A stretch of 64,000 nt of DNA. It comes from Candidatus Wirthbacteria bacterium (lineage in GTDB: Bacteria; Patescibacteriota; CG2-30-54-11). The stretch spans positions 74,599 to 138,598 of the forward strand of contig CAISZI010000053.1 in the NCBI GenBank assembly GCA_903889905.1, given 5' to 3'. The notes under the pieces were generated by a model. It was not told the DNA's origin. It saw nothing but the letters and a program-made list of their open reading frames with translations, and ran no database searches. Below are positions 3,883-28,329 of the stretch, piece after piece (within the stretch, counting starts at the first letter, position 1; each line of letters starts with the position of its first letter). The position numbers and the translations under genes are program-made.

Positions 3883-4291
3883 TATACAAGTCCCTGCGAA
3901 GCGTTCTGACGGTGAGCAGCTGAACGCAGTAATGACGATGTTGCTACCTACTGATACCGCAGGCTCCCTTCCGATTCGCTGACGAATCTACAGGGATCGA
4001 AATGGATAAGTACCTCTAAACGCGATGACTTGTTAAGATGTACTTTATAAGTTTCACTAAGTTCGAAGACTCACTAAGTTCAGCTTTATGGTGGATATAG
4101 GGTAACAATACTTGAACTTTTTAGCAAGATGATGACTAGGTGGCAGCAGGTAAACCGTTGGAATGGCTTCATGACGGACTTTCTGGAGCACAACAGGGGA
4201 ACAGAAGGGCTTGTGATAGATAAGCTGCGTTTATAGAAGGGGGGCGGTGTGCTATGGTGGGCAGGGTACTCACATACTCAAAGGGGGCAAT

Positions 4292-4600: not shown

Positions 4601-5122
4601 GCCCGAAGGCGCATGAACTTTAGGCAATGTTTAGTATTATTAACTATCTTTGAATGTTAGTAATTATTAACTATCTGTTGCAGGGATGAGGCACTAGGGG
4701 TGGGTGCTATTTCTGCGACAGCATTCTCTTTGCCCTATAGGCTCTTTTTTTGTATTAGTGCATTAGGCAAGAAAGGGGAAGGACATACGAGCAAAGGTTG
4801 GATGGGGGGTAGCATGTTCTGACGAGAAATGTCAAGGTTTTGCCCGCTACTCCCGCTGTGGAGGATACCTTTCTGTGTAATTAGGAGGAATAACGGATTT
4901 GTCCTCTTAATTGGGTATCAATATCGAGATGGGAGCAAAAAAACCGCAGTATTCGATTCCCTTGTTAGAATTGAGTAAGAGGAATAACCATACAGGACGC
5001 TCTCCGCGAAACATTGTTTATAATTATGAACTTGTCTGTTTGCTTAGTACAAAACAACTAAACTATAATGACTGAGTGTTTATGCCTGTAGCGTCTTGTA
5101 ATGCAATGAAAAAGGATGGAAT

Positions 5123-7027: not shown

Positions 7028-7030
7028 TAT

Positions 7031-7816: not shown

Positions 7817-7817
7817 A

Positions 7818-10520: not shown

Positions 10521-10559
10521 ACAAAGTTCATAATGATTAACTTTTAGAGATAGAACTAT

Positions 10560-11498: not shown

Positions 11499-11770
11499 CA
11501 CCTAAAGGCTTTTCTGTAGAAATCTTATGGAATCAGGTTAGGCTGTCCGTATGTCTGGTATGTAGATGTGCCCTTTATGCTCTCTGAGAGCCGTTCTAAT
11601 ACCATTCACCACGGCTCGTCGAGGAGAAATATCAGAACCATCGCGATGCTGCGTGTCGTCCTGTACCATCCTGAAATGTATTGATAAACGTTGAACGATG
11701 ACCAAGATACGCCATCAGAGGTATAATGCTGTTGTCAGCAAGATAGCTCTTAAAGTGGGGGTCTATACCC

Positions 11771-13456
11771 ATGCCAAGTCAGAAACCCAACCTTCTTGAA
11801 ATACTACGAGAACAACAAGGGCATAATGCAATAAAGAAGGACGAGAAGGACTTCAAGTACATAATCTATGCTCGTAAATCGACAGACAGCAAGGAGCATC
11901 AAGAAAAGTCACTGCCTGACCAAGTAAAAGCCTGTAAACTGCTTGCTGATAGCAAAGAATTGCATTACTTGAAGTCAGAAATTATTGAAGAGAAGGAATC
12001 AGCAAGGGAGCCAGATATACGCCCGATGTTTCGACGTATGATGGATGACATCAAATCTGGCAAGCATGATGGCATCATTACATGGCATCCTGACAGGCTA
12101 GCACGCAATATGAAGGAGGCTGGTGAAATTATCGACCTGCTAGACAAGAAAATCATCCAAGACATCAAATTTGCAAGTGTAACCTTTGACAACGATTCAA
12201 ACGGCAAGATGATGCTAGGTATTTCTTTTGTCCTGTCGAAACAGTACTCCGACAAGCTAAGCACTGACATCAGGCGAGGGATTGAGAACAGGGTAGCAGA
12301 GGGGCAGTACCTGAGCAGAACCAAGCATGGATACTACAAGGACAGGTATAATTTTCTACGCCCTGATGGTAATAACTTTGCTTTGATGAAGCAGGCTTGG
12401 CAGATGCGGTTGAATGGGCAGAAAATTGAGGATATAGCTGCCTTTTTGAATAAACAAGGGTATCAGCAGGCAGGCGAGGCTGGTAAAACTCATACACCCT
12501 TTACATGGAATGTAAAGAAACTGGCAGAGCGCTTTCATGACACTATCTATGCTGGTGTGTTGAAATACGGAAAGGATTCAGTCAGCCTGATAGAGGAATA
12601 CGACTTTATTCCGATGGTTACTGAAGAAGAATTTTTAGCGATAAACAAGACGCAATATATAGGTAATCCCTTCCGGTCTCGGTATAAGGTGGGTTCCAGG
12701 AAACAGACGAGAGCTGATTTTCTTCGGAGGATGGTGTTTTGCAGCTCCTGCAAGAAACCGATGGCGACAGGCATTACTTCAAAGAAAGACCAAAAGGGCG
12801 ACGAGACAAATTATTTCTATTTCAGATGCGACAACAAGAAGTGCAAGCAAAAGGGTAAATCAGTCCGTGGTAAAGTCCTTGAAGATTTTGTCATTGATTT
12901 TTTGGACAAGAACAAGATAGCTTCAAAATCTATCTATGAAACGTACGTGCGAGATATGGAGAATCATCTACGCCAAGAGCAACAAGCAATTCTTGGGCAG
13001 GAGAAAACACTAGCCAAGAAGCTTGTACAGGCTAAGGAGCTTATGAAAAAGACCAAGGAGCTCATGCTAGACAACAAAGATGCTAGCCTAAGGGAAGAGC
13101 TTACTGGTGACTACAAACAGTATCAAGGGGAGGCTGAGGGCTTGGATGATGAGCTACAGGCTATCCAGAGGGTGAAAAAAGAGGGGAAAGATGAAATAAT
13201 GGACTACAAAACGTTTCTTGAACTTATCGAGAAAGTGCCCGAGATACTTAGACAAACGACCACTTTGAAGGGGAAGGATAGTATCATCAGAGAAATCTTC
13301 ATGAACTTTACAGTAGACCGCAGGAAAGTCTTGTCGTATAAGCTAAAACCGCCCTTTGATGGGTTCATCAAGAGCGGTTTCAACCAGACTTTCACCTATG
13401 GTGGAGTTGAGGGGAGTCGAACCCCTGACCTCTGCAATGCGAATGCAGCGCTCTAG
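11771..13456 (+). CDS. Large serine recombinase (resolvase N-terminal domain plus zinc-ribbon and coiled-coil C-terminal domain)
   Basis: YIIYARKSTDSKEHQ...DRLARN catalytic resolvase motifs. C-terminal Cys cluster CSSCKK...RCDNKKCKQKG. The ORF 3' end overlaps the antisense strand of tRNA-Ala. Confidence 0.85.
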   Translation: MPSQKPNLLEILREQQGHNAIKKDEKDFKYIIYARKSTDSKEHQEKSLPDQVKACKLLADSKELHYLKSEIIEEKESAREPDIRPMFRRMMDDIKSGKHDGIITWHPDRLARNMKEAGEIIDLLDKKIIQDIKFASVTFDNDSNGKMMLGISFVLSKQYSDKLSTDIRRGIENRVAEGQYLSRTKHGYYKDRYNFLRPDGNNFALMKQAWQMRLNGQKIEDIAAFLNKQGYQQAGEAGKTHTPFTWNVKKLAERFHDTIYAGVLKYGKDSVSLIEEYDFIPMVTEEEFLAINKTQYIGNPFRSRYKVGSRKQTRADFLRRMVFCSSCKKPMATGITSKKDQKGDETNYFYFRCDNKKCKQKGKSVRGKVLEDFVIDFLDKNKIASKSIYETYVRDMENHLRQEQQAILGQEKTLAKKLVQAKELMKKTKELMLDNKDASLREELTGDYKQYQGEAEGLDDELQAIQRVKKEGKDEIMDYKTFLELIEKVPEILRQTTTLKGKDSIIREIFMNFTVDRRKVLSYKLKPPFDGFIKSGFNQTFTYGGVEGSRTPDLCNANAAL

Positions 13457-13475
13457 CCAACTGAGCTACAACCCC
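13399..13475 (-). tRNA. tRNA-Ala(CGC), 77 nt including CCA
   Basis: Manual fold gives acceptor GGGGTTG/CAACTCC with a G3:U70 pair, D-arm GCTC/GAGC, anticodon loop TTCGCAT, T-arm AGGGG-TTCGACT-CCCCT, and discriminator A followed by CCA. Confidence 0.85.
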
Positions 13476-13654
13476 ATGAAGAAGCAGTGAGCATGGAGCA
13501 AGGAGTTATGAGAAGAAAGGTGCGAAGTTGGCTAGGGCCAACTGTCTAGGATCCCCCGAAGTGGAGACGCCTCGTCGAAACGGAGTGGGGAAGCTACAAC
13601 CCCATGAAGAAGCAGTGAGCATGGAGCAAGGAGTTATGAGAAGAAAGGTGCGAA
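13464..13654. repeat. Two perfect 63-bp direct repeats (13464..13526 and 13592..13654). Each contains the first 12 nt of tRNA-Ala plus 51 nt of its upstream region
   Basis: Exact duplication read directly. Spacing is 128 bp. Confidence 0.8.
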
Positions 13655-13835
13655 TGTGGCGGGCCAATTAAATGTACAGGTCGCAGTATATAAAGATTTG
13701 GGTTAGCCGTCCAGAGAAAGTAGTCATTCTGAGTGTAAACTTCTGAGGTGGAGCGAAGAATCCTTACTGCTAACGAACCAAATGGTGGGTTTGTACTGTC
13801 AGTGAGGATCCTTCACAAAGCTTCAGGATGACGGA

Positions 13836-14245: not shown

Positions 14246-15541
14246 TTACTCCCAATCAAAGGTCACATCGGCGATGGTCACCTGGTCACCAAACTCAATG
14301 CCCTGTTTGATAAGTTCCGGGTAGACACCGGCGGCTTTGAGGCGGTCGTGCATCCAGTGCAGGGCTTCGGGATTTTGCATGGGCGTTGTCAGCACGATCA
14401 TTTCGGGCCGTTTGCCATAAACGTAAAAATGGTGGCCGTCTTTCTGGACTTCAAAGTGTTTCGGATCTTCCAGCAGCGGATTGATAATGTGTTCGCTGCC
14501 AGTGATTTTGTCAAGTTTTTTGGGGATGGCTCTGAGGATGTCATTGATGCTTTGAAGCAATTGATCAATGTTGGTATGGGCGGCGGCCGAAATAAACTGC
14601 AGGGGTTCTGGCGTAAATTTGGCAATGCTGTTTTGGAGGATTTTGCTGGCCTGGATTTTGGCCAGATCCGCGGGCATGATAGCGTCGATTTTGTTGACCA
14701 CCACGATTTGCGGTTTGTCCAAAATGGCGGGATTGAATTCCTTGAGTTCGCGCATGATGGTGACGAAGTCGGATTTGAGTACTTTGGGATCGAGCCGACT
14801 GCCATCGAGGATATGAATCAGCACACGGGTGCGTTCAATGTGGCGCAGGAATTGGTGCCCGAGTCCTTTGCCTTGGCTTGCGCCTTCGATCAGCCCGGGC
14901 ATGTCTGCCACCACAAAATCCTGCTCCCGGAATTTGACGACGCCAAGGTTGGGGATAATGGTGGTAAAAGGATAGTCAGCGATTTTGGGGCGGGCATTGG
15001 AAATGGTGGCAATCAGCGTGGACTTGCCGGCATTGGGCAGACCGATCAGGCCTACATCCGCCACCAGTTTGAGCTCCAGCTCGACTTCAGCTTCTTCCGA
15101 GGGTTCACCCAGTTGGGCAAATTTGGGGGCCTGGTATTTTGAGGTTTTGAGCATCAGGTTGCCAATGCCACCCCGGCCGCCCTTGAGCGCGATGAACTCT
15201 TCGCCATCTTCGGTAAAATCAAAGACAGGCACAAATTCCTCATTAACGGCCATTTTGACCACGGTTCCCACTGGAACTGCGATGAAGGTATCTGAGCCGT
15301 TTTTGCCATGCATGTTCTGTTTGAGGCCCATGCCGCCATCTTCGGCTTTGAACATTTTGTCGTATTTGAACTGGATCAGGGTGTTGATCGCGGCGTTCGC
15401 CTTGAAAACGATGTTGCCGCCCTGGCCGCCGCTACCGCCATCCGGACCACCCATGGGCTCGAATTTGGCACGACGAAAGGATTGTGAACCATTGCCGCCT
15501 TTGCCAGCCGTAATCGTGATATAAGCCTGGTCATAAAACAT
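14246..15541 (-). CDS. obg: GTPase Obg/CgtA
   Basis: Gly-rich N-terminal Obg fold (GGNGSQSF...GGPDGGSGGQGG). G1 box GLIGLPNAGKST and G3 box DMPGLIEGA. Confidence 0.9.
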   Translation of the reverse strand: MFYDQAYITITAGKGGNGSQSFRRAKFEPMGGPDGGSGGQGGNIVFKANAAINTLIQFKYDKMFKAEDGGMGLKQNMHGKNGSDTFIAVPVGTVVKMAVNEEFVPVFDFTEDGEEFIALKGGRGGIGNLMLKTSKYQAPKFAQLGEPSEEAEVELELKLVADVGLIGLPNAGKSTLIATISNARPKIADYPFTTIIPNLGVVKFREQDFVVADMPGLIEGASQGKGLGHQFLRHIERTRVLIHILDGSRLDPKVLKSDFVTIMRELKEFNPAILDKPQIVVVNKIDAIMPADLAKIQASKILQNSIAKFTPEPLQFISAAAHTNIDQLLQSINDILRAIPKKLDKITGSEHIINPLLEDPKHFEVQKDGHHFYVYGKRPEMIVLTTPMQNPEALHWMHDRLKAAGVYPELIKQGIEFGDQVTIADVTFDWE

Positions 15542-15685
15542 GGGTTGCCTGCAAAACTAGAAGTGGACGTAGGGCTATTATACTAAGGGTTGGTGGTTTT
15601 GGCGAGGGAAGGGCAAACGGAAGATTTATCTCCATCAAACATTCAAAAAGTGTGAGTATGATGAAGACATAGAGATTGTGTGCCG

Positions 15686-15760
15686 ATGTCATCCTGAACT
15701 CGATTGAGGATCTGCATTTAAGTCAAAGGTGAGATTCCGGGTCAGGCCCGGAATGACATT
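15686..15760. repeat. ~75-80-bp palindromic element. The second copy is at 54146..54228, sharing a gtcatSctgaactcgatt terminal inverted repeat
   Basis: 18/19-nt identity between the left arms. In copy 2 the right arm is the reverse complement of the left arm (gaatcgagttcgggatgac). Confidence 0.6.
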
Positions 15761-15940
15761 AAGCGGTCCATCATGATAGATAATTGCAATTAATGTAGTG
15801 ATTATGTGACCGTCAAAGGGTTCAAAAATCCTCATCTTTGCCAAATGGCTAAAAATGAGGATGAGGGTAACGGGAACTATGAAATTGTAGAAAAATCAGA
15901 TTGGTGTTTTGGGGATGGGCGTAAGCATTACGCCCCTACG

Positions 15941-16381
15941 TTATTTGTCGAGGTACTTTTTGATCTTGTCGATGACTTCCCGGGGAGTGAGATCGGATTT
16001 GAGCAGATAGTCGACAGCGCCGAGGTTCATTCCGCCTTTGACCACAAATTCCTGGCCAAGGTTGCTGAGCAGAATGACGGGGATATTTTTGGTAATGGCT
16101 TCGCTTTTTAATTTTTTGAGCACTTCCAGGCCATCCATTTTGGGCAGCATGATGTCCAGCAGGATCAAATCCGGGTTTTCTTTTTGAGCTTTTTCCAATC
16201 CTTCCAGGCCATCCTGGGCCACCACCACGTCATATTCCTCAACAGCCAGTTTGGTCTGGTAAATGTCTGACAGGAAAAAATCATCTTCCACCAGCAGGAT
16301 ACGTGCCTTGGTATGGTCTGGCGTAAGATGTGGTGCCATGACGTCGTCCTGATGAAAAACTGGGTTAGTAGCTAGTTGCAT
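15941..16381 (-). CDS. Stand-alone response regulator receiver domain (CheY-like)
   Basis: ILLVEDD...DLILLDIMLPKMDG receiver motifs. No output domain and no adjacent histidine kinase. Confidence 0.75.
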   Translation of the reverse strand: MQLATNPVFHQDDVMAPHLTPDHTKARILLVEDDFFLSDIYQTKLAVEEYDVVVAQDGLEGLEKAQKENPDLILLDIMLPKMDGLEVLKKLKSEAITKNIPVILLSNLGQEFVVKGGMNLGAVDYLLKSDLTPREVIDKIKKYLDK

Positions 16382-16547
16382 GGTTGAAGCCTCCGGTTTG
16401 GTTTTTTGTTTTTAATACTTCACTAAATTATAACCTCGACTCCATGTTTGTGTCAATGTGCCTAAAGTCCTACTATTGATAAGTTGGATGAATATTGTTA
16501 TTTTAGCCTTTGTCTATCGTCTCATTTATAGCAAAGGGAGTGGATTT

Positions 16548-18563
16548 ATGTCCCTGTTTTCCACACTCGAGTCCAAGTATGTGCTGGGGATGGGAGTTGC
16601 GGCAGCGGTTGTGGCCATTGTCTACGGCGCCATGCTGATTGCCCGGATTTTGAAACAACCGCGCGGTAATGCCGAAATGATCCGCATTGCCGACGCCATC
16701 CAGGAAGGGTCGGAAGCTTACCTCAACCGCCAGTATAAAGTGGTGGGTGCCGTGGCGGTGGTGATGGTGTTTGTCCTTGGTTTTGGCATCAACTGGAAAA
16801 CAGCGATTGGGTTTTTGCTGGGCGCAGCGGCCTCAGCACTGGCTGGTTACATTGGGATGAATGTGGCAGTGCGTTCCAATTCGCGCACGGCCGAAGCCGC
16901 CCGTTCCGGGCTTGGCAGCGCTTTGACGCTGGCATTCCAGGGTGGCACAGTGACAGGACTGTTGGTGGTTGGACTGGGCATTCTGGTCGTCACAGGCTTT
17001 TTTGCCTTTACGGGTGACGTCAAAGCCTTGATTGGACTTGGCTTTGGTGCCAGCCTGATCTCGGTGTTCGCGCGCCTGGGTGGTGGTATTTATACCAAAG
17101 CTGCAGACGTGGGTACTGATATGGTAGGCAAAATTGAAGCTGGCATTCCCGAGGACGACGTGCGCAATCCTGGAGTCATTGCCGATAACGTGGGTGATAA
17201 CGTGGGTGACTGCGCCGGTATGGCCGCAGACCTGTTTGAAACTTATATTGTGACGGCTGTTGCCGCGATTTTGCTCGGTTCACTGGTGATCCCTGGTGTC
17301 GTTAACGCGCTGGTCTTCCCCATTGCCTTAGGTGCTGCCGCGATTGTGGCTTCCATCCTGGGCACCTTCTTTGTCCAGGTTGGCAAAGACAAGAACATCA
17401 TGAAAGCGCTCTATCAGGGATTGATTGCCGCGGCCGTGTTCGCCGCTGTGCTATTCTACCCGATCACGATGTGGATCATGAAGGGCAATGGCGTTTATAA
17501 CACCTGGAATCTGTATGTGTGCTCACTGGTGGGGATTGTGGTCACCGCCGCCATGGTGGTGATTACCGAATACTACACCTCGACCAAGTACGGTCCGGTT
17601 AAGGAAATTGCCTCCGCGTCCCAGTCCGGACATGGCACCAATATCATCAGTGGACTTGGCATCAGCATGAAGTCAACCTTGATGCCGGTGCTGGTGATCG
17701 TGGCTGCCATTTTCGTCTCGTTCCAGTTTGCCGGGCTCTATGGCATCGCGATCGCAGCCATGAGCATGCTCTCAATGTCGGGCATTATCGTGGCTATCGA
17801 TTCCTTTGGGCCAATTACTGACAATGCCGGTGGCATTGCCGAAATGGCAGGACTACCGGAAGAAACCCGTGAAGTGACCGACGCGTTGGATGCCGTGGGC
17901 AACACGACCAAAGCGGTGACCAAAGGTTATGCCATTGCATCAGCTGGACTGGCTGCTCTGGTGCTGTTTGCCTCATATTCGGAAGATTTGAAAGCCTCTG
18001 GTAAAACCGTTCTGTTTTTGATTTCGGATTATCGCGTCATCATCGGCCTGCTGATCGGTGGCGCCATTCCTTACTTCTTTGGTGCATTGTGTATGCAGGC
18101 TGTGGGCAAAGCAGCCATGAAGATTGTCGAAGAAATCCGTCGCCAGTTCCGCGAGATCAAAGGCATCATGCAGGGTACGGGTAAGCCAGACTATGCTGCC
18201 TGCGTGGATATCGTGACCAAAGCGGCGATCAAGGAAATGATCCTGCCGGCCATTATCCCGGTGCTGGCACCGATTGTTGTTGGCTTGTTGCTTGGACCAG
18301 AAGCCCTGGGTGGTTTGCTCGTGGGTACGATCATCACGGGTCTGTTTGTCGCCATTTCCATGACCACGGGCGGTGCTGCCTGGGACAATGCCAAGAAATA
18401 CATCGAAAAAGGTAACTACGGCGGCAAAGGTAGTCCTGCGCATCAGGCTGCTGTTACCGGTGACACGGTTGGCGATCCCTACAAAGATACCGCTGGGCCA
18501 GCTATCAACCCAATGATCAAGATTATCAATGTGGTGGCGCTGCTGATGATACGGTTCTTGTAA
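16548..18563 (+). CDS. hppA: Membrane-integral H+(or Na+)-translocating pyrophosphatase
   Basis: [20 protein letters not shown] and [19 protein letters not shown] signature motifs. Many TM segments. Start chosen at the ATG after RBS aagggag; the track ORF began at 16458. Confidence 0.85.
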
Positions 18564-18603
18564 GGCAAAGGTTTGTAAAGTTATGAAGTTCGAGAAGTTT
18601 AAG

Positions 18604-18651
18604 AAAATCCCCCTCGATCCCCTTTTACGTAAATGGGGAAGGGGGATTTTT
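18604..18651 (+). terminator. Rho-independent terminator after hppA
   Basis: aatccccct ... agggggatt stem followed by a T-run. Confidence 0.7.
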
Positions 18652-18737
18652 CATTAACAACGGAGATATATGAGGTTGGTCCATCTTCTGTTAAAATTAA
18701 TGCCTTGTTTAAATTACAAGCCAAAAGAGAGGTAGCA

Positions 18738-20270
18738 ATGGCATTCCCTCAGTCTGATTGTGAGAATACCAGTAATCAATTAGGGCATGAGCAAGAAAAT
18801 TTTGACGATCATGTTGTAATTTTAACGAAACAAGATTATCGCTACAACTTTGCTGATATGCAATCGATGGGAGCTCTGTTCGAGGTCGTAAACCGCCTTC
18901 TATCTGGTGTTCGTGAAGGTACCTTTGGAGCGATTCCGCATTTGGGTGCAGGAATTGTAGCCGGCGAATTAATGTCACTTGGATGTAATGTCCAGATATT
19001 AGACATCAGTGACCCTCGAGCGTTGGCAGTGGCTCAAGCAGCGGACTTGGTTGGTGTGTCGATGCTGGAAATCAGTGCTGATCATGTTATCGAAGACATA
19101 CTGCCACAACTAGACCTGTCGAAAACAATTGTTGGCGGCATTGGCGCAACAGTAATGGAAACAGAATTACATAGTGTTTTTCCTGATTTAGCGATTGTTT
19201 CTGGTGAATCTGAAGGACTCATGCGGCAGATACTGACAGATTTGCATGCTGGTCAATTACAGGGCCACTATAGACGAGATAAATCTGTCGATATGGCGGA
19301 GGCTACCCATGAACCTTATCTCGATGAGAGATTTTCATATCGTAATTTGTCCCCTTTTCGCCGTAGTTTCCTGAAGGTTCTAGAAGTAGGACGTGGATGT
19401 CCTTATGGTTGTAATTTTTGCATTACGCCTAACCTTGAGCTTAATAACTCCCATAAACCAATGGATGTGATTAAGGCTGAATTAGCAGCCATCAAAGAAC
19501 AAGCTGGTCCGAAAATAATCTTTTTCGTTGACCAAAATTTATGTACCTATCCCAAAGCTTATTTGCATCAGCTTTTTGATTACATTAATGATTTAGGACT
19601 TGCTTGGGTAGGTGAGGGAACAGTCCAGGATATTTTGGAGGATGAAGATCTGGTTAGTAAAATGGCGCGAAATTGTGCGTCGTTTCTCGTTGGATTGGAA
19701 GACATTAGCCATAATATACGTGGATCAGCTGCAAAAAATAAACTACATGAAGGTATCCTGTCAAAAGTAACAAAATTGCGAAAAATGGGTTTGCCCATCG
19801 TCTGGTCGATGGTGTTTGGGACTGATGAACAGGATCTCAGCGTATTCAAAGATACCGTCGATTTTGTCAAGGAAGCCGGGATAACGATAATTCCTCATAT
19901 TGAAACACCCCGTCGGGGTACTGTTCGCTATCGAAATTTAAATAAGGAAAATCGCTTGATCGAATGTCCTGCTGGAAAGCATGATCAAAAATATCATGTG
20001 ACCCATAAACCAGCGAATATGACTCCGGATGAACTTATGGGTGGATTTGCCTGGATGTATCAGCAAGTTTTTTCGGAACGAGCCATTGCGCAGCGGTTTT
20101 GGCAGAACTTGCAAATAGGAGGTATGAAATATGCGGCAGGACTATCTGTCTTGGAACTCGATGGCTGGATAACCAATGTCCGCCTGCATAAAATGTATCC
20201 CAAACTTTTGCAGGATGCCCGTGGTATAATAGAATCGAACAAAAACAGAAAGACCTCACTAGATTATTAG
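18738..20270 (+). CDS. B12-binding-domain radical SAM protein (class B), function unknown
   Basis: CPYGCNFC (CxxxCxxC) radical-SAM cluster motif follows an N-terminal Rossmann-like B12-binding region. Start placed at the ATG with RBS agagagg. Confidence 0.75.
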   Translation: MAFPQSDCENTSNQLGHEQENFDDHVVILTKQDYRYNFADMQSMGALFEVVNRLLSGVREGTFGAIPHLGAGIVAGELMSLGCNVQILDISDPRALAVAQAADLVGVSMLEISADHVIEDILPQLDLSKTIVGGIGATVMETELHSVFPDLAIVSGESEGLMRQILTDLHAGQLQGHYRRDKSVDMAEATHEPYLDERFSYRNLSPFRRSFLKVLEVGRGCPYGCNFCITPNLELNNSHKPMDVIKAELAAIKEQAGPKIIFFVDQNLCTYPKAYLHQLFDYINDLGLAWVGEGTVQDILEDEDLVSKMARNCASFLVGLEDISHNIRGSAAKNKLHEGILSKVTKLRKMGLPIVWSMVFGTDEQDLSVFKDTVDFVKEAGITIIPHIETPRRGTVRYRNLNKENRLIECPAGKHDQKYHVTHKPANMTPDELMGGFAWMYQQVFSERAIAQRFWQNLQIGGMKYAAGLSVLELDGWITNVRLHKMYPKLLQDARGIIESNKNRKTSLDY

Positions 20271-20285
20271 TTGAGGGCTTTTTTT

Positions 20286-21089
20286 ATGGGCGAAAACAAT
20301 CGTTTGAACATGTCCGAAGGTGAGTCTGGCAATTTGTCGACAACAGCTGATGTTGAATTTACTGATGCCGATGGTGGTTTGGATGAAGTTGTGGACAGAG
20401 TGGAAGCGGAATTATTACCGTCTACTGAACCATCCGGGCCGCAGCTGGGGCGAGAAGAATTGACAGTGTTGGTCAGCGATATCATCTCCAATCAACCCGC
20501 CGGCGAGAAAGTAATTAGTTTTCAAGAACTAATGCGCCATGCTAGAAGATGGTTATCGAGGCATCTGGCAAGTCAGAGCGGTATTGATACACTACAATCA
20601 TCTGACAAGCAACCTGACCAGGAACGACGGGGAACTAGGAGGATTGAAGGACCGAGCAAGTATGTGCTGCAATTTGTGCAAGATTTGAACCAACATGTCC
20701 ATGACTTCGAACACAAGATTGTCCCTGTTTGGTTGAAAATCAAAGACACTTTTTCACCAGCTGCGCTACAGGGACAGAGTGAAATGCTGGTTGCCCAGGC
20801 AATGACCCAGTTACGTGCAATGGTTATCTTTGAGTTAGACAACTTCAATACAGACACTAATTGGTTGGAACTTTTTGATCTCAAAGAACCCTTGATGGAC
20901 AGGATCTTGAATTCGATGCAGGCATGGGTTAGAACACAAATAGATAAAGAAGCAGCCAGTAAGGACCAACAGTCCGGAAGTCGCAGGCCGCAAGTTGCAG
21001 GTTTGTTTCGTGACAGCTGGAGTTTGGTGCGAGATGCCGTTCGCGATTCAAAATCAGCCTCTGTAAATCTTGGTAAAGCGACGGGATAA
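20286..21089 (+). CDS. Hypothetical acidic protein (267 aa)
   Basis: ORF directly downstream of the radical SAM gene. No motifs recognised. Confidence 0.5.
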   Translation: MGENNRLNMSEGESGNLSTTADVEFTDADGGLDEVVDRVEAELLPSTEPSGPQLGREELTVLVSDIISNQPAGEKVISFQELMRHARRWLSRHLASQSGIDTLQSSDKQPDQERRGTRRIEGPSKYVLQFVQDLNQHVHDFEHKIVPVWLKIKDTFSPAALQGQSEMLVAQAMTQLRAMVIFELDNFNTDTNWLELFDLKEPLMDRILNSMQAWVRTQIDKEAASKDQQSGSRRPQVAGLFRDSWSLVRDAVRDSKSASVNLGKATG

Positions 21090-21201
21090 AGTCCAGAGTA
21101 GTTATGTAATGATGTGGATTGTCTGCCTCTATGCAAGTTGAGGCAGTATTAGTACAATGTTTTCGTTGACCAAAAACGATAGGATTTACGCTCTCATAGC
21201 T

Positions 21202-21258
21202 TCCTCCTTCGCTTTGAAGCTTCCGCCGTCGCATGGCTAGGGCGGACAGGACGAAGGA
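21202..21258. repeat. ~57-bp conserved structured motif. The second copy is at 26525..26580. Outer stem tccttcg/cgaagga, inner hairpin with loop tcgcatggct
   Basis: About 80% identity. The inner stem is CCGCC/GGCGG in copy A and CCACC/GGTGG in copy B, a compensatory G:C to A:T change. Confidence 0.55.
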
Positions 21259-21306
21259 CAGGCAGTGGTTTTGTAGGTGTACCAGCTTGTAGGTGAAAGC
21301 ATCACG

Positions 21307-21360
21307 CCCTCATAGCTCAGTGGATAGAGCGGTGGTTTCCTAAACCATGCGCGCAGGTTT
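21307..21360 (+). pseudogene. Truncated copy of tRNA-Arg(CCT), 5' 54 nt only
   Basis: Identical to nt 1-54 of the complete tRNA-Arg at 21464. Diverges inside the T-loop into a 9-bp hairpin followed by TATAAT. Confidence 0.75.
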
Positions 21361-21390
21361 ATCCCGTTTGCAACGGGATACCCTATAATG
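21361..21390 (+). promoter_or_regulatory. Perfect 9-bp-stem hairpin (tatcccgtt-tgc-aacgggata) followed by a TATAAT -10-like box, upstream of tRNA-Arg
   Basis: Read directly. Candidate promoter or processing element for the tRNA. Confidence 0.4.
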
Positions 21391-21463
21391 GAAATGGCGA
21401 TTCCATCACAGGTTAGAGTGTAATTTAAGTTATTCAGTCGCACATTGAGATGATTGATTTACG

Positions 21464-21538
21464 CCCTCATAGCTCAGTGGATAGAGCGGTGGTTTCCTAA
21501 ACCATGCGCGCAGGTTCGATTCCTGCTGGGGGCGCCAA
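21464..21538 (+). tRNA. tRNA-Arg(CCT)
   Basis: Manual fold gives acceptor GCCCTCA/TGGGGGC, D-arm GCTC-AGTGGATA-GAGC, anticodon stem GTGGT/ACCAT with loop TTCCTAA, T-arm GCAGG-TTCGATT-CCTGC, and discriminator G followed by CCA. Confidence 0.85.
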
Positions 21539-21674
21539 ACTACGCCAAGGCTTCGTTTGGCAGGCCATAAAGTTGAAATCGGTGAGTCAACGAGCTTAGT
21601 GAAACTTATCCCTGAAAGCCTGTCATTAGGCTGGAAGGGATCCTTCGCGAATCATTTTTCTTCAAAGGTCCAAT

Positions 21675-22607
21675 ATGTGTGACGGTCTAAACGATCAACT
21701 TCCCGAAAGTGAATTAGAACGTAAGGCCAATGCACTTCTGGATTCTTTTGTGCCACTGGCGTTTAATTTGCCTAAATGGCGCGATGATCCAGAGATGATG
21801 CATTATGAAGTCAAGGCATTGGGAGCCGGAGGAGCTAAAGATGTTGCCACACAGGCAGATAAGCGGATGCAGGCGGCGGTCAAGAAGGCTGTTTTGGCGA
21901 TTGATCCCAAATTGATTTTCAAAGGTGAAGAAGCAGAAGACAAAATCGATTTGACGCAATTCGTTGTTGGTGAAGCTGCCGTCGCTGACCCCGTGGAAGG
22001 GACTAATAATTTTATCGCACGTATGGACGAGGATTGGGGATCGGTTTTGGCAATTGTGGACCTGGAAAACCAGGAACCTTTGATTGGAATTGTTGCTGTT
22101 CCAATGCAACGGAAAGTCTATCTTGGGATCAAGGGATTGGGGGCATGGGTTATCCAGTATGGTGAAAACAATCAGGAAATCAGCCGCAAGCCGATGGAGC
22201 AGGAGCCCGAAAGAAACGAATTTACCTATAATAACAGCCCTCATTTCGAGGCACCCAGGCAGCAACAAATTGATAGGTTTTGGGCTATGGGAAGAGCTGA
22301 GGAGAATGCAGATCAAGATCACGCCAACATGAGGTTAAGAAAACCAGTGACGATCGCGTATGACGGTCAATTAATGCGTTTTGTCGATCGGGAAAGTGGC
22401 GCTCTGGAAGCAGTGCAGTCACTTGGTACGATTTATTTCAAAACTGACGATGAAATGGCGGCTGTGGCTGTCATTTTGAAAGAACTAGGCGGTATGGTCA
22501 CGGATGGCGAAGGACGGCCATGGCATCCGGGTTTTAGTTCGATGATCTGCGCCCGGACTCCGGAAATCTGGGCTGTGTTGAAAGCTATTTATGATCAGAC
22601 AAAATAG
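21675..22607 (+). CDS. Inositol monophosphatase / CysQ-family phosphatase
   Basis: DPVEGTNNF metal-binding motif and WDxAA-like region, typical of IMPase-fold proteins. Confidence 0.65.
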   Translation: MCDGLNDQLPESELERKANALLDSFVPLAFNLPKWRDDPEMMHYEVKALGAGGAKDVATQADKRMQAAVKKAVLAIDPKLIFKGEEAEDKIDLTQFVVGEAAVADPVEGTNNFIARMDEDWGSVLAIVDLENQEPLIGIVAVPMQRKVYLGIKGLGAWVIQYGENNQEISRKPMEQEPERNEFTYNNSPHFEAPRQQQIDRFWAMGRAEENADQDHANMRLRKPVTIAYDGQLMRFVDRESGALEAVQSLGTIYFKTDDEMAAVAVILKELGGMVTDGEGRPWHPGFSSMICARTPEIWAVLKAIYDQTK

Positions 22608-22663
22608 GATGGTTTGATATTTGAGGTTTAACAAAACCTCGGCCATTAATACTAAGGAGTGAC

Positions 22664-23125
22664 ATGATTGATCCCTTGGTTGAAGCTTACAGCACTGAGC
22701 TTAAAGCGTTAAATATCGAACATACCATTTTGGAGCATCCGGCGCTGGTGGATGCTAGGGAAGTGCAAAAGTTATTCGGTTTGACTGTGGCGGATGCCTG
22801 CCCGACACTGATCATGAAAGCAGATGATCAGTTTGTGGCGATTGTTAAAAGAGGCGACTGCCGGCTGGACAACAAGAAAATCAAAGCCATTCTGAACACC
22901 TCAAGTTTGCGGATGGCGACCAAGGAAGAATTTGAGGAACTCACCAAACTCCCGATTGGAACAGCGCGGGTTTTGGTGCCAGGTGTCAAAACACTGTTGG
23001 ACCAAAAGCTGTTTGAAAAAGAATATTTGAACGGCGGAACTGGCAGCCTTACTTGTACTTTCAAATACAGGACTGAGGATTTGAAGAAACTTCCAAATAG
23101 TACTGTCGTTGACCTTGCGGAGTAA
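22664..23125 (+). CDS. YbaK/ProX-family aminoacyl-tRNA deacylase
   Basis: 153 aa. The sequence is characteristic of YbaK editing-domain proteins. Confidence 0.65.
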   Translation: MIDPLVEAYSTELKALNIEHTILEHPALVDAREVQKLFGLTVADACPTLIMKADDQFVAIVKRGDCRLDNKKIKAILNTSSLRMATKEEFEELTKLPIGTARVLVPGVKTLLDQKLFEKEYLNGGTGSLTCTFKYRTEDLKKLPNSTVVDLAE

Positions 23126-23128
23126 TTT

Positions 23129-23488
23129 GTGATTGCCACCCAAAATTCCCTCAAAATCAACCTTACCGCAATCCCGACCGAAACCGGGCATCATGAGACG
23201 GTGTTTAAAAAAGTGCTGATCAACAAACCACACGGTTTGGGTGAAATCCAGACCATGAACCATGTCTATCTCAAGTCCGGTATGGTGGTGGAACCGCATG
23301 TGCATGAGACGGACAAAGAGTTTTACCTCTTCTTGGACGGTAGTGGGGTGATGGTACTTGGCGAGGAGCGGTTTGAGGTTGGCATGGGTGACTTTGTCGA
23401 GATTCCGGTGGGGAAAACCCATTCCATTGATAATACTGGAATTAAGGATTTGGTTTTGATTTCATTACGTGTTCGTTTAGCAGATTAA
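23129..23488 (+). CDS. Cupin-domain protein
   Basis: PHVHETDKEFYLFLDGSG...FVEIPVGKTHS two-motif cupin signature. GTG start. Confidence 0.65.
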   Translation: MIATQNSLKINLTAIPTETGHHETVFKKVLINKPHGLGEIQTMNHVYLKSGMVVEPHVHETDKEFYLFLDGSGVMVLGEERFEVGMGDFVEIPVGKTHSIDNTGIKDLVLISLRVRLAD

Positions 23489-24187
23489 TTGGATTTAAAT
23501 ATGAACTTGCAAAATAAAGTCATTGTCCTCACCGGTGCCAGCAAAGGTTTGGGTCGTGAAATGGCGCTCCTGATGGCCAAAGCGGGTGCCAAGCTTGTCT
23601 TGAGCTCTCGTGCGCATGAGCATCTTAAATTGGTGGCGCAGGAAACCGGTGGGTTTGCGCTGCTGGCCGATGTCAGCAATGAACACGACGTGATGCGGCT
23701 GGCCGAAACGGCGGTGGAACATTTTGGGCGGATTGACGTGTGGATCAACAACGCCGGCATCTGGATTCCGCATGCCGAAATCGAGGTGCTGGATACGGCC
23801 AAAGTCCTGCAAATGATGCAGGTCAATGTCATGGGCACGATTTATGGTTCCAAGGCAGCCTATATCCAGATGAAACGCCAGGGCGGAAGCGGCACGATCG
23901 TCAACATTCTCTCGACGAGTGCGCTGGCGGGACGTCCTTTTTCGGCCGGTTATTGTGCCTCCAAGTGGGCGGTACGTGGGTTTACCGAATCGTTGCAGGC
24001 AGAAGCGAAGGGGACTGGCATTGACGTGGTGGCGGTGTATCCGGGCGGCATGCAAACGCATTTTTTTGATGAACAAAAACCTGCTGATTATGACACTTAC
24101 ATGAATCCAGCCGAGGTGGCTGGCAAAATCGTTCAACATCTGGAGGCCAAGGAGCTTGGTCTGGAGTTAATCCTCCGGCGGGGGTAG
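23489..24187 (+). CDS. Short-chain dehydrogenase/reductase (SDR)
   Basis: TGASKGLG cofactor motif and YCASKWAV catalytic YxxxK motif. Confidence 0.85.
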   Translation: MDLNMNLQNKVIVLTGASKGLGREMALLMAKAGAKLVLSSRAHEHLKLVAQETGGFALLADVSNEHDVMRLAETAVEHFGRIDVWINNAGIWIPHAEIEVLDTAKVLQMMQVNVMGTIYGSKAAYIQMKRQGGSGTIVNILSTSALAGRPFSAGYCASKWAVRGFTESLQAEAKGTGIDVVAVYPGGMQTHFFDEQKPADYDTYMNPAEVAGKIVQHLEAKELGLELILRRG

Positions 24188-24253
24188 ATTCTTCATCAAA
24201 TGTGCATGAAATACTGCTATCAATAGAGTGGTGGGAATTTTATCAATTGGGGA

Positions 24254-24496
24254 TTGTTTATGGCAAACAAAGACAAAAAGTTTTTGGCAGTGGGTCTGGC
24301 TGCTGTCGCGGTGGTGGTATTCGGGGTGATTGCCCTGACTTCACCCAAAAGCCCGTCGGCCAGCGATACTTTGGCCATGCAAACGGCGGCTGCCGCGAGC
24401 GGGAGTTCTGCGACAACGCCTTTTGCTAACATGGGTGCGGTGGATACCGGATCCTCTCCATCCATGTCGAGTAGCAGCTTGAGTGTGGGGAAGTAA
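24254..24496 (+). CDS. Small hypothetical secreted or membrane protein (Ala/Ser-rich)
   Basis: ORF with an N-terminal hydrophobic segment. Low complexity. Confidence 0.35.
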   Translation: MFMANKDKKFLAVGLAAVAVVVFGVIALTSPKSPSASDTLAMQTAAAASGSSATTPFANMGAVDTGSSPSMSSSSLSVGK

Positions 24497-24526
24497 TTTC
24501 CTAAAACTGTAACTGGAGTAAACCCG

Positions 24527-25432
24527 ATGAAAATCGCAGTCGTTGGCGCCGGCGGTGTGGGCGGTTTTTTTGCCGCTGCCATGTCTCGTGGCGGGCTGGA
24601 TGTGACGCTGGTGGCACGCGGAGAACATGGCGAAGTTATCAGCAAAAACGGCCTGCTGGTCAAAGATTGTGATGGTGATTTTGTCGCGCGACCTCGGGTT
24701 GTGGCGAGTTGTACCGACTTGGAAGCGATGGATGTGATTTTCCTGACCGTTAAATCTTATGATCTGGTTGCGGTTGCTGACAGCTTGCGCCGGGCAGTTA
24801 ATGCTAAGACGATAATCGTGACGCTGCAAAATGGTATCGATAATGCCGACATTGTCCACAAGGCATTGCCACAGGCGCAGGTTTGTCCTGGGGTTGCGTA
24901 CATTATCGGTGAAAAGTTGGCGGCGGGAATTGTCGGGAGCAGTGGCCAGCGGCGGATGATTTTTGGCGATGCGCACAAGCAAAATAATGCCAAATTGCGA
25001 GCACTCGCGGATCGTCTGCAACAGGCGGGAGTGAACGCGGTCTATGCCTCAGAGATCATGGCCGAAATCTGGTCCAAATTCATCCTGATTGTAGCCAGAG
25101 CTGGGATGACGTCGGTTTGTCGCAGTTCGATTGGCCGCATTGTTGACGACCCGCTGGCGCATGATTTGTATCTTCGTACTGCCCGCGAGGCGTTGCTTGT
25201 TGCACAAGCCATGGGTGTTGCGTTGGACGACAGTGTCCTCGATCTGGTGCTGAATATTGGCGTGAGGTCTGATCCGCATTCCAAATCTTCCATGCTGGTG
25301 GACATCGAACATGGCCGACCAACTGAAGTGGAAGGCATTCATGGCACGTTGGTCAGGTTGGCCAAAGAGCAAGGGATTGCCGTGCCGCTCAATGAAATGA
25401 TTTGTGCAGCAATCCGATTGGGGACGAAATAA
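24527..25432 (+). CDS. panE: 2-dehydropantoate 2-reductase (ketopantoate reductase)
   Basis: MKIAVVGAGGVGG NAD(P)-binding motif, VKSYD and LQNG motifs of the ApbA/PanE family. Confidence 0.8.
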   Translation: MKIAVVGAGGVGGFFAAAMSRGGLDVTLVARGEHGEVISKNGLLVKDCDGDFVARPRVVASCTDLEAMDVIFLTVKSYDLVAVADSLRRAVNAKTIIVTLQNGIDNADIVHKALPQAQVCPGVAYIIGEKLAAGIVGSSGQRRMIFGDAHKQNNAKLRALADRLQQAGVNAVYASEIMAEIWSKFILIVARAGMTSVCRSSIGRIVDDPLAHDLYLRTAREALLVAQAMGVALDDSVLDLVLNIGVRSDPHSKSSMLVDIEHGRPTEVEGIHGTLVRLAKEQGIAVPLNEMICAAIRLGTK

Positions 25433-25595
25433 AGCTTGCAACCCTTCATGAAACCTCCACAAAAACTTGATAAATGTTAATTAATTTATGGATGGGATGA
25501 TGCGTATGAGTATGCCGCGCTGGTTGTTTGCAGCGGTAAAAGCGAAGTGTTACAGTACTTGCACCTTAAAGTCACAAGCATAGGAGTATGGAAAA

Positions 25596-26501
25596 ATGAC
25601 GATCTACAATGATATCACCCAGAACAAACGCAATTCCTACCTGCTGATGGCCGTGTTCATGCTAGTGATCATGGCGATCGGGTGGGCGTTTGGGCAGGTC
25701 ATGGGTTCCACTGCGACGGGGATGACGATTGCTTTTGTGTTTGCATCGGTGTCGGCGTTGATCAGTTATTTTTATTCCGACAAGATTGCCTTAAGCATTT
25801 CACATGCCCAGGAAGTGGACTTGCAAAGCGACCGGGATTTGTTCCACCTCATGGAAAATCTCTGTATCGCGACCGGGTTGCCTATGCCCAAGCTCTACAT
25901 CATCAACGACAGTGCGCCCAATGCCTTTGCTACGGGCCGCGATCCCCAGCATGCCGCCATCTGTGTGACCACGGGGTTACTGCAGAAAATGGAAAAACGT
26001 GAACTCGAGGGAGTACTGGCGCATGAACTATCTCACGTCAAAAACTACGACACGCGCATGATGACTATGGTGGTTGTGCTGGTGGGTGTGGTGGCATTGC
26101 TTTCCGACTGGATGTTGCGGTTTACGATGTTTGGCGGGTCGCGTCGTCGGAGCAATCGTAATGGTGATGACGGGGGTGGATTGCAAGTTGTTTTTCTTTT
26201 GCTGGGAATTCTGCTGGCGATTCTGGCACCGATTATTGCGACCTTGATCAAGATGGCGATCTCGCGTCAGCGTGAATACCTGGCCGATGCCTCGGCTGCC
26301 CTGATCACGCGTTATCCCGAAGGTCTGGCGAGCGCACTGCAAAAAATTGGTGGAGACCCGGCGCCGCTCAAGGAAGCCAACAAGGCAACGTCGCATCTCT
26401 ATATCGCCAATCCGCTCAAGGACCACAAATCCTCGCTGAATAACCTGTTTGACACCCATCCACCCTTGGAGGACCGGATTGCACGGCTCAGGGCCATGTA
26501 A
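25596..26501 (+). CDS. htpX: Zinc metalloprotease HtpX (M48)
   Basis: HELSHV HExxH motif. TM segments. Typical HtpX layout. Confidence 0.85.
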   Translation: MTIYNDITQNKRNSYLLMAVFMLVIMAIGWAFGQVMGSTATGMTIAFVFASVSALISYFYSDKIALSISHAQEVDLQSDRDLFHLMENLCIATGLPMPKLYIINDSAPNAFATGRDPQHAAICVTTGLLQKMEKRELEGVLAHELSHVKNYDTRMMTMVVVLVGVVALLSDWMLRFTMFGGSRRRSNRNGDDGGGLQVVFLLLGILLAILAPIIATLIKMAISRQREYLADASAALITRYPEGLASALQKIGGDPAPLKEANKATSHLYIANPLKDHKSSLNNLFDTHPPLEDRIARLRAM

Positions 26502-26628
26502 GAGACGGAAACGAAGTTTATAATCCTCCTTCGCCCAGGCACTTCCACCTTCGCATGGCTTCGGTGGACAGGACGGAGGACTTAACGAAGGGAATCGAGT
26601 TTTAAAGTTATAAAGTGGGAAGAGGGGA

Positions 26629-27459
26629 ATGGGGAAGCGTGTTTTGGGGTTGGCACTACTGACGGTAGGGTTGTTTGCGGGTTGTTCGACGCAAGCGGAG
26701 AACAATCCCCGGAATTCTGCGACTGCAGTTGATCAGAGTGTAAATTCGACCACGGCCAAACCCAAACCAGCGGAAGTCTGGCGTTTCGTGGTATTGGGCG
26801 ATACGCATGGTGATACCGACCAATTTCCGGCGCTCTTGAAGCAAATTCAGGCCGACAAACCCGAATTCGTGATCGATGTCGGTGATTTGACCAAAGTGGG
26901 TGGAAGTGACGAGTTCAAAATTGCCAAAGCGCAGTTTGATGGTTTGGGTATACCTTATGACGCTGTTCCCGGCGATCACGATATTGTGACGGGCAAGGGG
27001 TTAAAGTATTTCACACCAGCGTTTGGTAAGGATTACCAGTCGTTCATGGCACATGGGTTGCAGTTTGTCCTGGTTGACAATGCTGACCTGATTCGCGGCA
27101 TGACAACTCAGCAGTGGACGTTTTTGGATCAGCTTCCCAGCAACCTGACGACCTTTGTCCTGCTGCACCATCCTCCCAGTCATCCGTTGTTCAAAATGCA
27201 TACCATGCAGGAAACCGCTCAAGGTGCCATCGATGAAAAACGGCTGCAGACTTGGATACTCAAGCACAACGTGAGACAAGTTGTGGCCGGTGAAATGCAC
27301 TTGTTTCAGCAATATGCGCTGGAGGGCGGGATTCCGCTCACGGTCGTGGGGGCTGCCGGAAAGTATGACAATCCGGGCGAAGACCAGTACGTGCTGGTGC
27401 AGTTTTACACTGACCAGACCTGGACTATCAAACAAAAAGTCCTGGGTCAGTCACCTTGA
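26629..27459 (+). CDS. Lipoprotein metallophosphoesterase (calcineurin-like)
   Basis: Lipobox LFAGC. LGDTHGD and GDHD phosphoesterase motifs. Confidence 0.75.
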   Translation: MGKRVLGLALLTVGLFAGCSTQAENNPRNSATAVDQSVNSTTAKPKPAEVWRFVVLGDTHGDTDQFPALLKQIQADKPEFVIDVGDLTKVGGSDEFKIAKAQFDGLGIPYDAVPGDHDIVTGKGLKYFTPAFGKDYQSFMAHGLQFVLVDNADLIRGMTTQQWTFLDQLPSNLTTFVLLHHPPSHPLFKMHTMQETAQGAIDEKRLQTWILKHNVRQVVAGEMHLFQQYALEGGIPLTVVGAAGKYDNPGEDQYVLVQFYTDQTWTIKQKVLGQSP

Positions 27460-27525
27460 AATAGCACTTTCACAAATTTTCGCGCACGCTATAATAGTTC
27501 CGCTTTATGTTTATTCTCGAGCCAC

Positions 27526-28329
27526 ATGACAGACACCCAAGTCACGACCAAGAAAGTTAACCGTACCGAAGCTCTGGCGAGCGCATTTGTGCTGAGCGCT
27601 GGTTTGGCGTTGTTCCTGAGTGCTGATAAACCACAGGTCGTGGTACTCGCTGCGGCTTTGCTGTTGTTGCCACTGATTGCCAGCCTGTGGGTGATGAAAG
27701 TGCCGATCCGTCGTTTTGCACTGAACAAACTGGAGGTATATGCGCTGCCGATTTTGCCGGTGCTGCTCTACGGGGCGATGCTTTTTTTCCTGCACGAGAT
27801 TCGGCTGATGCTGTTTGCCTGGGCCTGGGTCATTGCTGACATTCCGCTGTTTTATCTGATGTTCATCACCCAAAGTGCGCTGGAAAGATACCAGAGTCTG
27901 CCAACCCACGTCGGGCGTGTGGTCCTCAATATCCTGTCGTTGTTTACCGGCTACATGGGCTACAGTTTTTTATTTAATCAGGGTTTTCCGATTTGGCTGC
28001 TGATGGGATTGGTGTTTGGGTTCACGGCACTGATCGGTCTGCAGGCGATGTTGTGGTGGAACAGCGGCAATGTGAGGTATTCACTGTTTTATGCGGCATT
28101 TACGGCTTTTTGGCAAAGCGTGCTTGCTTTACTGCTGTGCTTGTGGCCGGTCGGTCACTTTGTGCTTGGGGTGATCATGTTGATTGGGCTTTACCTGCTG
28201 ATGGGCCTGATCCAGAATTACTTCAAGAAAACGCTCACCCGGTATGTCGTGATCGAGCACCTCGTTGTAACCATGATGATGTTAATATTTATTTTAAGTC
28301 AGGTTGTTTGGATACCACACTTTGATTAG
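27526..28329 (+). CDS. Polytopic membrane protein, unknown function
   Basis: Multiple hydrophobic helices. Confidence 0.55.
   Translation: MTDTQVTTKKVNRTEALASAFVLSAGLALFLSADKPQVVVLAAALLLLPLIASLWVMKVPIRRFALNKLEVYALPILPVLLYGAMLFFLHEIRLMLFAWAWVIADIPLFYLMFITQSALERYQSLPTHVGRVVLNILSLFTGYMGYSFLFNQGFPIWLLMGLVFGFTALIGLQAMLWWNSGNVRYSLFYAAFTAFWQSVLALLLCLWPVGHFVLGVIMLIGLYLLMGLIQNYFKKTLTRYVVIEHLVVTMMMLIFILSQVVWIPHFD

Follow-up and report, generated by a model that had tools for sequence, protein, structure and literature searches.

Hairpin-split 5' fragments upstream of tRNA-Arg(CCT) and tRNA-Ala(CGC), possible scars of small insertions in a deep-branching bacterium

Partial 5' copies at two tRNA genes of the window

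The window, a stretch of 64,000 nt, derives from a poorly sampled, deep-branching bacterium. For its Obg protein, four uncultured relatives were found at 54-60% identity, followed by Chloroflexota and CPR bacteria at 49% or less; the best non-self match of the inositol-monophosphatase-family protein (IMPase) encoded near tRNA-Arg is 49% identical, and a search of genome contigs with this gene found no close relatives. Three tRNA genes were identified in the window by ARAGORN, namely tRNA-Arg(CCT), tRNA-Ala(CGC) at 13399-13475 (minus strand) and tRNA-Pro(UGG) at 45802-45877 (minus strand). The tRNA-Arg gene has genes for Obg, a response regulator, an H+-pyrophosphatase, a radical-SAM protein and a hypothetical protein on one side, and for the IMPase, a YbaK-like editing domain protein, an SDR, PanE and an M48 peptidase on the other. 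These neighbours are ordinary chromosomal or housekeeping genes, and no integrase or recombinase gene adjoins the partial copies of tRNA-Arg that lie upstream of it. The features of this locus, all on the plus strand, are as follows.

21183-21201 (+): copy 1, first piece; seven upstream bases (gatttac) and gene positions 1-12 with C3>T (-7..+12), 18/19 identical to 21456-21474
21202-21262 (+): hairpin element X, 61 nt, inserted after gene position 12 of copy 1; long hairpin fold, -24 kcal/mol
21263-21268 (+): CAGTGG, gene positions 13-18, copy 1 resuming past the insert (read from the sequence)
21269-21303 (+): 35-nt spacer between copy 1 and copy 2; no significant similarity to the intact gene's present upstream region (9/20)
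21304-21359 (+): copy 2; two upstream bases and gene positions 1-54 (-2..+54), ending inside the T loop, 56/56 identical to 21461-21516
21360-21397 (+): 38-nt insert in copy 2, a hairpin and TATAAT (fold, scans)
21398-21404 (+): CGATTCC, gene positions 55-61, copy 2 resuming past the insert; best local match of 21360-21455 against the rest of the gene
21405-21462 (+): present upstream region of the live gene, 58 nt, ending in gatttac, the last seven bases being repeated at 21183-21189
21463-21537 (+): intact tRNA-Arg(CCT) (ARAGORN; Rfam tRNA 65.7 bits)
21538-21612 (+): trailer, with the hairpin ACTACGCCAAGGCTTCGTTTGGCA and a motif common to other tRNA 3' flanks; 21565-21609 is 84% identical to 4047-4091 (minus strand), near an island end

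Both dead copies are thus arranged head-to-tail within 280 bp upstream of tRNA-Arg(CCT), in the order copy 1 (-7..+18, split after +12), a 35-nt spacer, copy 2 (-2..+61, split after +54), a 58-nt spacer and the live gene. The split falls in the D stem in copy 1 and in the T loop in copy 2. The initial annotation had reported three 5' starts of this tRNA, that of the intact gene included, and all three were recovered (21183-21201, 21304-21359 and 21463-21537), as was the 19-nt length of the first copy with its 7 nt of upstream context, in which a single mismatch was noted (18/19). The second copy had been given as a 54-nt fragment running into a perfect hairpin and TATAAT at 21307-21390; every one of these elements is present, and only the boundaries needed revision, as the identical block comprises 56 nt including two upstream bases and the tRNA part therefore starts at 21306. 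What had escaped notice is that the fragments are interrupted by hairpins and then resume, and that the unusual point is the duplication of the 5' rather than the 3' part of the gene.

The 5' copies of tRNA-Arg(CCT) are a real feature of the locus and not a chance match. In shuffled sequence, a match such as copy 1 is expected 0.01 times per window, and for the three resumptions in the window (CAGTGG, CGATTCC and, at tRNA-Ala, CAGTTGGC) we estimate from k-mer frequencies a joint chance of roughly 1e-7 or less. The identity blocks -2..+54 and -7..+12 both represent the 5' part of the gene and end at a point inside it, as would a duplicated attachment site located in a 5' half. Copy 2 scored 27.4 bits against the Rfam tRNA model, under the gathering score of 29 and covering model positions 7-64 only; it was not called as a tRNA by ARAGORN, and does not make up the complete cloverleaf, with acceptor 3' strand and T arm, of a functional tRNA. 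In a simple tandem duplication (P-Q-Q-R) the units are homologous over their whole length, and copy 2 departs from this layout, with 56 of 157 nt matching and flanks without significant similarity. Upstream of the 56-nt block, similarity to the region upstream of the live gene is not significant (9/20, p about 0.06), and the idea that this context is a diverged duplicate was dropped. The filler after each fragment was likewise considered as a decayed gene remainder or trailer and rejected, local alignments being no better than shuffles except for the short resumptions.

The intervals between the repeats at tRNA-Arg are 103-254 nt long and contain no credible ORF. Hairpin element X has a paralog at 26524-26581, matching 21202-21259 at 79% over 58 nt, in an unrelated intergenic region just past the M48 peptidase gene, and the change in the stem of the paralog is compensatory (CCGCC/GGCGG to CCACC/GGTGG). 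A weaker X-like sequence was seen past the ancestral tRNA-Ala 3' end, at about 3800-3860. The hairpin of the copy-2 insert (21360-21380) consists of a perfect 9-bp stem and a 3-nt loop (-12.5 kcal/mol, z = -3.3), with TATAAT 3' of it at 21384-21389. A consensus scan found no sigma-70-like -35 partner for this TATAAT and lends no support to the hairpin and TATAAT as a promoter or terminator. The copy-2 hairpin junction had no match in metagenome or viral collections, and a 28-mer of the tRNA had none in viral contigs. Searches against Rfam 15 returned tRNA matches only, both in 19000-24000 and in 13 related loci, so that the inserts were not assigned to known RNA families or ribozymes.

A comparable unit lies upstream of tRNA-Ala(CGC), whose 3' end is occupied by an island.

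13476-13667 (-): 5' partial duplicate of tRNA-Ala(CGC), a 78-nt repeat at 95% identity (12-mer search)
3861-13419: island of about 9.5 kb at the tRNA-Ala(CGC) 3' end, low in GC (0.38-0.44), bounded by a 22-nt direct repeat (3861-3882 = 13398-13419)

The first piece of the 5' unit (13667-13592) comprises about 64-66 nt of upstream context followed by GGGGTTGTAGCT, which corresponds to gene positions 1-12. It is interrupted by a 47-nt insert (13591-13545), after which the gene resumes with CAGTTGGC (positions 13-20, 13544-13537), and then come the upstream context again and the gene itself. The break is located after position 12 with TCC next, the same pair of features as in copy 1 of tRNA-Arg. 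Apart from its 47-nt insert, the unit has the structure of a simple tandem duplication. The bodies of the three units in the window, two at tRNA-Arg and one at tRNA-Ala, are unrelated in sequence to one another.

The 22-nt repeat that bounds the island equals the tRNA-Ala 3' end. Island genes encode a DNA methylase, a type III Res helicase-endonuclease, a DUF4268 protein and a 561-aa large serine recombinase (11771-13456), the ORF of which overlaps tRNA-Ala at its end on the opposite strand. This recombinase, tied to the tRNA-Ala 3' end, is the sole one among the scanned ORFs, and no tyrosine integrase was detected in Pfam scans of ORFs at 182-13456, 14246-28329 and 42630-49600.

Distribution of 5' fragments in other genomes

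The initial annotation had proposed comparing this locus with related genomes. Locus L021, from a distant relative (Obg 57% identical), retains the order tRNA-Arg / response regulator-Obg-RsfS / tRNA-Ala and, further on, M48-metallophosphatase-DUF5656-protease-CoaBC, so that both tRNAs occur in the same gene neighbourhood as in the window; neither 5' nor 3' fragments are present at its tRNA-Arg or tRNA-Ala. In addition, no 5' fragments were found in another relative, L023, or at 20 Chloroflexota tRNA-Arg loci. The tRNA-Arg anticodon/T region is common to 20 Chloroflexota/Dehalococcoidia MAGs, in a single copy each and with synteny in none. In L021 the tRNA-Arg gene lies 140 nt from the response-regulator gene (L021 8850-9225), and in the window the two are separated by a 5-kb block (16382-21182) in addition to the fragments, a block that has no counterpart at this place in L021 and encodes the H+-pyrophosphatase, a B12/radical-SAM protein and a 272-aa hypothetical protein. 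This block was considered as cargo of a 5'-type element and rejected, because the surroundings of the response-regulator gene contain no tRNA-Arg fragment. Downstream of tRNA-Arg, too, the window and L021 have different genes, both flanks of this tRNA being variable. The tRNA-Ala(CGC) and tRNA-Arg(CCT) genes are on opposite strands in the window (8 kb apart) and in L021 (2.8 kb apart); in four Dehalococcoidia MAGs (L001, L017, L019, L020) they are neighbours on one strand, separated by 150-260 nt.

A third relative, L024 (GCA_035340955.1; Obg 56% identical), has a tRNA-Ala gene identical to that of the window (77/77) with three tandem 5' units upstream, each consisting of GGGGTTGTAG(C/G)T, an insert of about 75 nt, CAGTTGG and about 27 AT-rich nt. 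Of the 31 tRNA genes of the window and the first 25 loci, only three have their first 12 nt copied upstream, namely tRNA-Arg and tRNA-Ala of the window and tRNA-Ala of L024. On the 3' side, L024 (2383-2838) and L025 (2441-2877) carry tandem arrays of at least three copies of a 171-nt non-coding unit, each starting with atttgTTAGTGAGTC and ending in 17 nt that repeat the tRNA-Ala 3' end. Of the three 5' units in L024, two have inserts that likewise open with TTAGTGAGTC, and the insert of the remaining one opens with TAATGAGTTC.

Strain-level presence and absence was observed in one species of the human gut. In otherwise near-identical contigs of this species, a discrete 160-nt block is present in L070 (1664-1823) and L056 and absent in L042, L122 and L065. 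It consists of a direct repeat of tRNA-Ala(CGC) positions 1-20 (plus one base) and a 140-nt non-coding body, which is unrelated to the neighbouring spacer and ends with the reverse complement of gene positions 19-28. Short-range 5' fragments can thus come or go with an insertion of foreign DNA, and copying of the upstream neighbour is not required. Polymorphism among strains was seen in the gut species only, the tRNA-Arg comparison relying on the distant L021. A similarly laid-out body follows position 20 of a different tRNA-Ala in L032, its core being identical at about 24 of 30 positions and the alignment of the whole bodies only borderline significant. The gut species also shows an insertion of about 230 nt at the 3' end of tRNA-Ala(CGC) (L070 about 1945-2145), independently present or absent among strains, the body of which opens with the reverse complement of the tRNA T arm.

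A metagenome scan for pairs of tRNA-Ala-type starts 107-137 nt apart yielded at least 120 loci, and in at least 47 pattern matches the upstream copy is a fragment rather than a gene. Several forms recur. In the first (L050, L135 and L049, and L107 at tRNA-Asp), gene positions 1-12 are followed by a TCCGYC...GRCGGA multi-hairpin and the gene then resumes; L050, L135 and L107 break at one common position, AGCT|TCCGYC, before resuming. The second form (L026, L044, L083, L139, L045) comprises gene positions 1-19/20, a co-varying hairpin, an A-rich stretch and the D arm in reverse complement. In the third (L104, L073), the fragment extends from position 1 to about 54, is truncated in the T arm and occurs in arrays of four to five. 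A tRNA-Arg(CCT) example was provided by L034. Resumption of the gene past a hairpin, as in copy 1, was thus encountered at tRNA-Ala of the window and in L024, L050, L135 and L107. Nearly every fragment among the matches listed has a stable hairpin directly after it, and the intervening bodies measure 38-190 nt. Rfam contained no match to any of the surveyed bodies, and the 145 loci listed include no long element of the 5' type that carries an integrase.

Origin of the fragments

It is plausible, and this is the reading that we tentatively prefer, that the fragments in the window were left by small insertions, one after another, into the 5' half of a tRNA gene, each of which re-formed an intact gene downstream. 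At tRNA-Arg, two such events would have followed one another; each would have brought in or duplicated the 5' part of the gene and thereby restored a complete gene downstream, and the old 5' part would have been left behind as a fragment together with its old upstream context. The current 100 bp upstream of the live gene, with the hairpin and TATAAT, would then stem from the latest insertion. Copy 2, the one nearest the gene, is probably the younger because it is identical at 56/56 positions, against 18/19 for the far copy, and the start of its identity at -2, without similarity further upstream, is what one would expect of a process that needs to restore nothing but the tRNA part. More speculatively, a small circle that carried a hairpin-split 5' fragment and crossed over within positions 1-12 would yield exactly this layout. 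We infer that the window fragments arose in the manner of the gut insertion, and the order of events and targeting to a fixed position are put forward in the same sense. Judged by comparison of sequences, the insertions appear not to be ancestral, as the syntenic L021 and the 20 Chloroflexota tRNA-Arg loci are without fragments.

Repeated recombination at this tRNA, either illegitimate or site-specific, had been suggested in the initial annotation. Its recurrent nature is supported by the lack of fragments in the syntenic L021, by the recurrence at tRNA-Ala and in another relative, and by the gut polymorphism. As to the choice between the two mechanisms, the identical break points at Ala, Arg and Asp genes (after position 12, then TCC) favour targeting, but no recombinase was found. 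Several observations speak against insertion, in that no recombinase gene adjoins the fragments, the bodies are only 38-190 nt long, and arrays of the L104 type resemble tandem duplicates of a whole gene with its flank followed by a common deletion.

The strongest competing explanation, which we regard as possible but on the whole unlikely, is that slippage or unequal crossing-over at microhomology duplicated the promoter-proximal region with the start of the gene, and that the copies then decayed and received REP-like hairpins, gene conversion keeping the tRNA pieces identical. The tRNA-Ala block speaks for it and counts against insertion, since about 64-66 nt of context is duplicated at 95% identity and the microhomology TTGGC, found in the D loop as well as upstream, marks the bounds; this unit fits a slippage duplication followed by insertion of a hairpin. 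Similarly, 16 nt of context is duplicated in L107, the array units of L104 and L073 are near-identical as unequal crossing-over predicts, and hairpin X has its second copy at an unrelated site (26524-26581). Copy 2 of tRNA-Arg is difficult to accommodate, however, as neither of its flanks is homologous to those of the live gene, and a plain tandem duplication would need 0% divergence within 56 nt beside complete divergence outside. Also counting against slippage, the body of the gut polymorphism is 140 nt of foreign sequence and not a duplicated neighbour, and the break points fall at exactly the same position, after position 12 with TCC next, in Ala, Arg and Asp genes of several genomes. If slippage and decay were all that is involved, the fragments would be ordinary genome debris.

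It is improbable that the partial copies are instead functional leaders, that is, structured RNA modules combining tRNA 5' sequence and hairpins, through which the downstream tRNA would be regulated at the level of transcription, termination or maturation. Some of the metagenomic loci do speak for such a role: in L026, L044, L083, L139 and L045 the inner hairpin is kept via compensatory changes at four pairs, and the D-arm reverse complement in these same five loci tracks each genome's own tRNA; L050 and L135 keep their multi-hairpin body with changed stems, and a stable hairpin follows at once after nearly every fragment. However, the presence or absence of units among strains of one species argues against an essential role, and units are absent from L021, L023 and the 20 Chloroflexota loci. 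The bodies of the three units in the window are unrelated in sequence, no Rfam family was matched, and the region in the window gave no consensus for a promoter or terminator. The initial annotation had offered an unusual promoter-leader duplication as an alternative, a view that finds no support in L021 and the 20 Chloroflexota loci, where the structure is absent, or in a TATAAT without a -35 partner. Finally, a wrong path through strain variants in metagenome assembly, which might be suspected since a single metagenome-derived contig is all that is known of the genome and the exact 56-nt repeat exceeds a common k-mer of 55 by one base, is very unlikely to have produced the arrangement, as junctions can be assembled only if some molecule contained them, the same architecture occurs in independent NCBI, JGI and ENA assemblies, and the tRNA-Ala repeat has diverged (95%) and is therefore not a k-mer artefact.

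Relation to known tRNA-associated elements

tRNA genes are textbook landing sites of mobile DNA, which almost always uses their 3' end, the gene keeping its own promoter. The classical tRNA/tmRNA 3'-end islands, with their tandem accretion and cis-mobilizable (CIME-like) remnants, resemble the arrays described here in that direct repeats of a partial tRNA gene are stacked by successive events, and the remnants are likewise non-autonomous and without a recombinase. The classical kind itself is represented by the window island (3861-13419) and the 171-nt units of L024 and L025, and tRNA-targeted recombination is active in this lineage, as seen from the serine-recombinase island and these 3' mini-elements. 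Classical islands duplicate the 3' part of the tRNA and leave fragments downstream, whereas the present arrays are a mirror image, with the 5' part duplicated and the fragments upstream. At tRNA-Arg, where the repeats represent positions 1-12 and 1-54 and lie upstream, there is neither a 3' repeat downstream nor a recombinase between repeats. A simple attL/attR model, moreover, does not predict that a hairpin splits the fragment and that the gene continues beyond it.

Like dispersed palindromic repeats of the REP/MITE type, hairpin X recurs in an unrelated intergenic region, its stem there showing a compensatory change, but neither a target duplication nor a terminal inverted repeat was recognised. 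REP-like elements are not known to occupy a fixed position inside tRNA-derived sequence.

A close counterpart is found in Archaea. For the pTN3-like tyrosine integrases of Thermococcales, attB is described as the 5' half of a tRNA gene, and integration parts the gene from its promoter (PMC8371274; PMC5495485). As reported in these two papers, the duplicated block is the tRNA 5' part and the intact gene is re-formed on the far side of the element, much like the layout observed here. Those elements are presented as archaeal plasmids or viruses of kilobases that encode the integrase and have attP in its gene, whereas in the present case the host is bacterial, the DNA is non-coding and 38-190 nt long, no integrase is nearby and the fragments are split by hairpins. 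One of the two papers (PMC8371274, citing Williams 2002) describes use of the tRNA 5' half as seldom encountered in bacteria. Partial non-canonical tRNA genes have been catalogued by van der Gulik et al. 2023 (PMC9897764), in whose account truncated copies near an intact one are attributed to integration of foreign DNA. That account notes how easily partial tRNAs are mis-scored by tRNA finders (PMC9897764), in line with the 27.4 bits of copy 2. The examples that it gives flank elements of 9-23 kb, and short-range hairpin-split 5' fragments do not figure in the part of the catalogue considered (PMC9897764). The fragments at tRNA-Arg are best filed as tRNA-associated insertion scars of a 5'-side, miniature and hairpin-split type.

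A broader proposition, which we consider doubtful at present, is that bacteria harbour widespread, undescribed miniature elements without coding capacity, which insert into the tRNA 5' half (D arm, T loop) at fixed positions, regenerate the gene by supplying its 5' part and leave tandem hairpin-split 5' fragments upstream. Such elements would still be mobile in some populations, for example in human-gut strains, and tRNA-Arg and tRNA-Ala of the window would represent fossil arrays. A recurrent process on the 5' side would give tRNA genes a new promoter and leader time after time, its decoy fragments would be misread by tRNA finders and island finders, and a new targeting mechanism would be indicated, which could be a trans-acting recombinase or a repair pathway. 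The polymorphism among gut strains is a tractable system for direct study of these questions.

Two further sequence features of the window were recorded. Palindromic stretches, detected by self-comparison as self-inverted matches of 26-89 nt, are located at 54145-54228, 55351-55376 and 55670-55701. The trailer hairpin of tRNA-Arg is 90% identical to the tRNA-Asp trailer in L107, and the motif GA[GA]CTTAGTnnnACTTA in the trailer region occurs in three places: downstream of tRNA-Arg (21565-21612), at 4047-4091 (minus strand), within the tRNA-Ala island and about 165 nt from its distal end, as well as at 45591-45760 (minus strand). In the last of these, downstream of tRNA-Pro, it lies in a 72-nt tandem repeat of 2.4 copies. 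The motif may be a marker of a family of 3' mini-elements or a common trailer.
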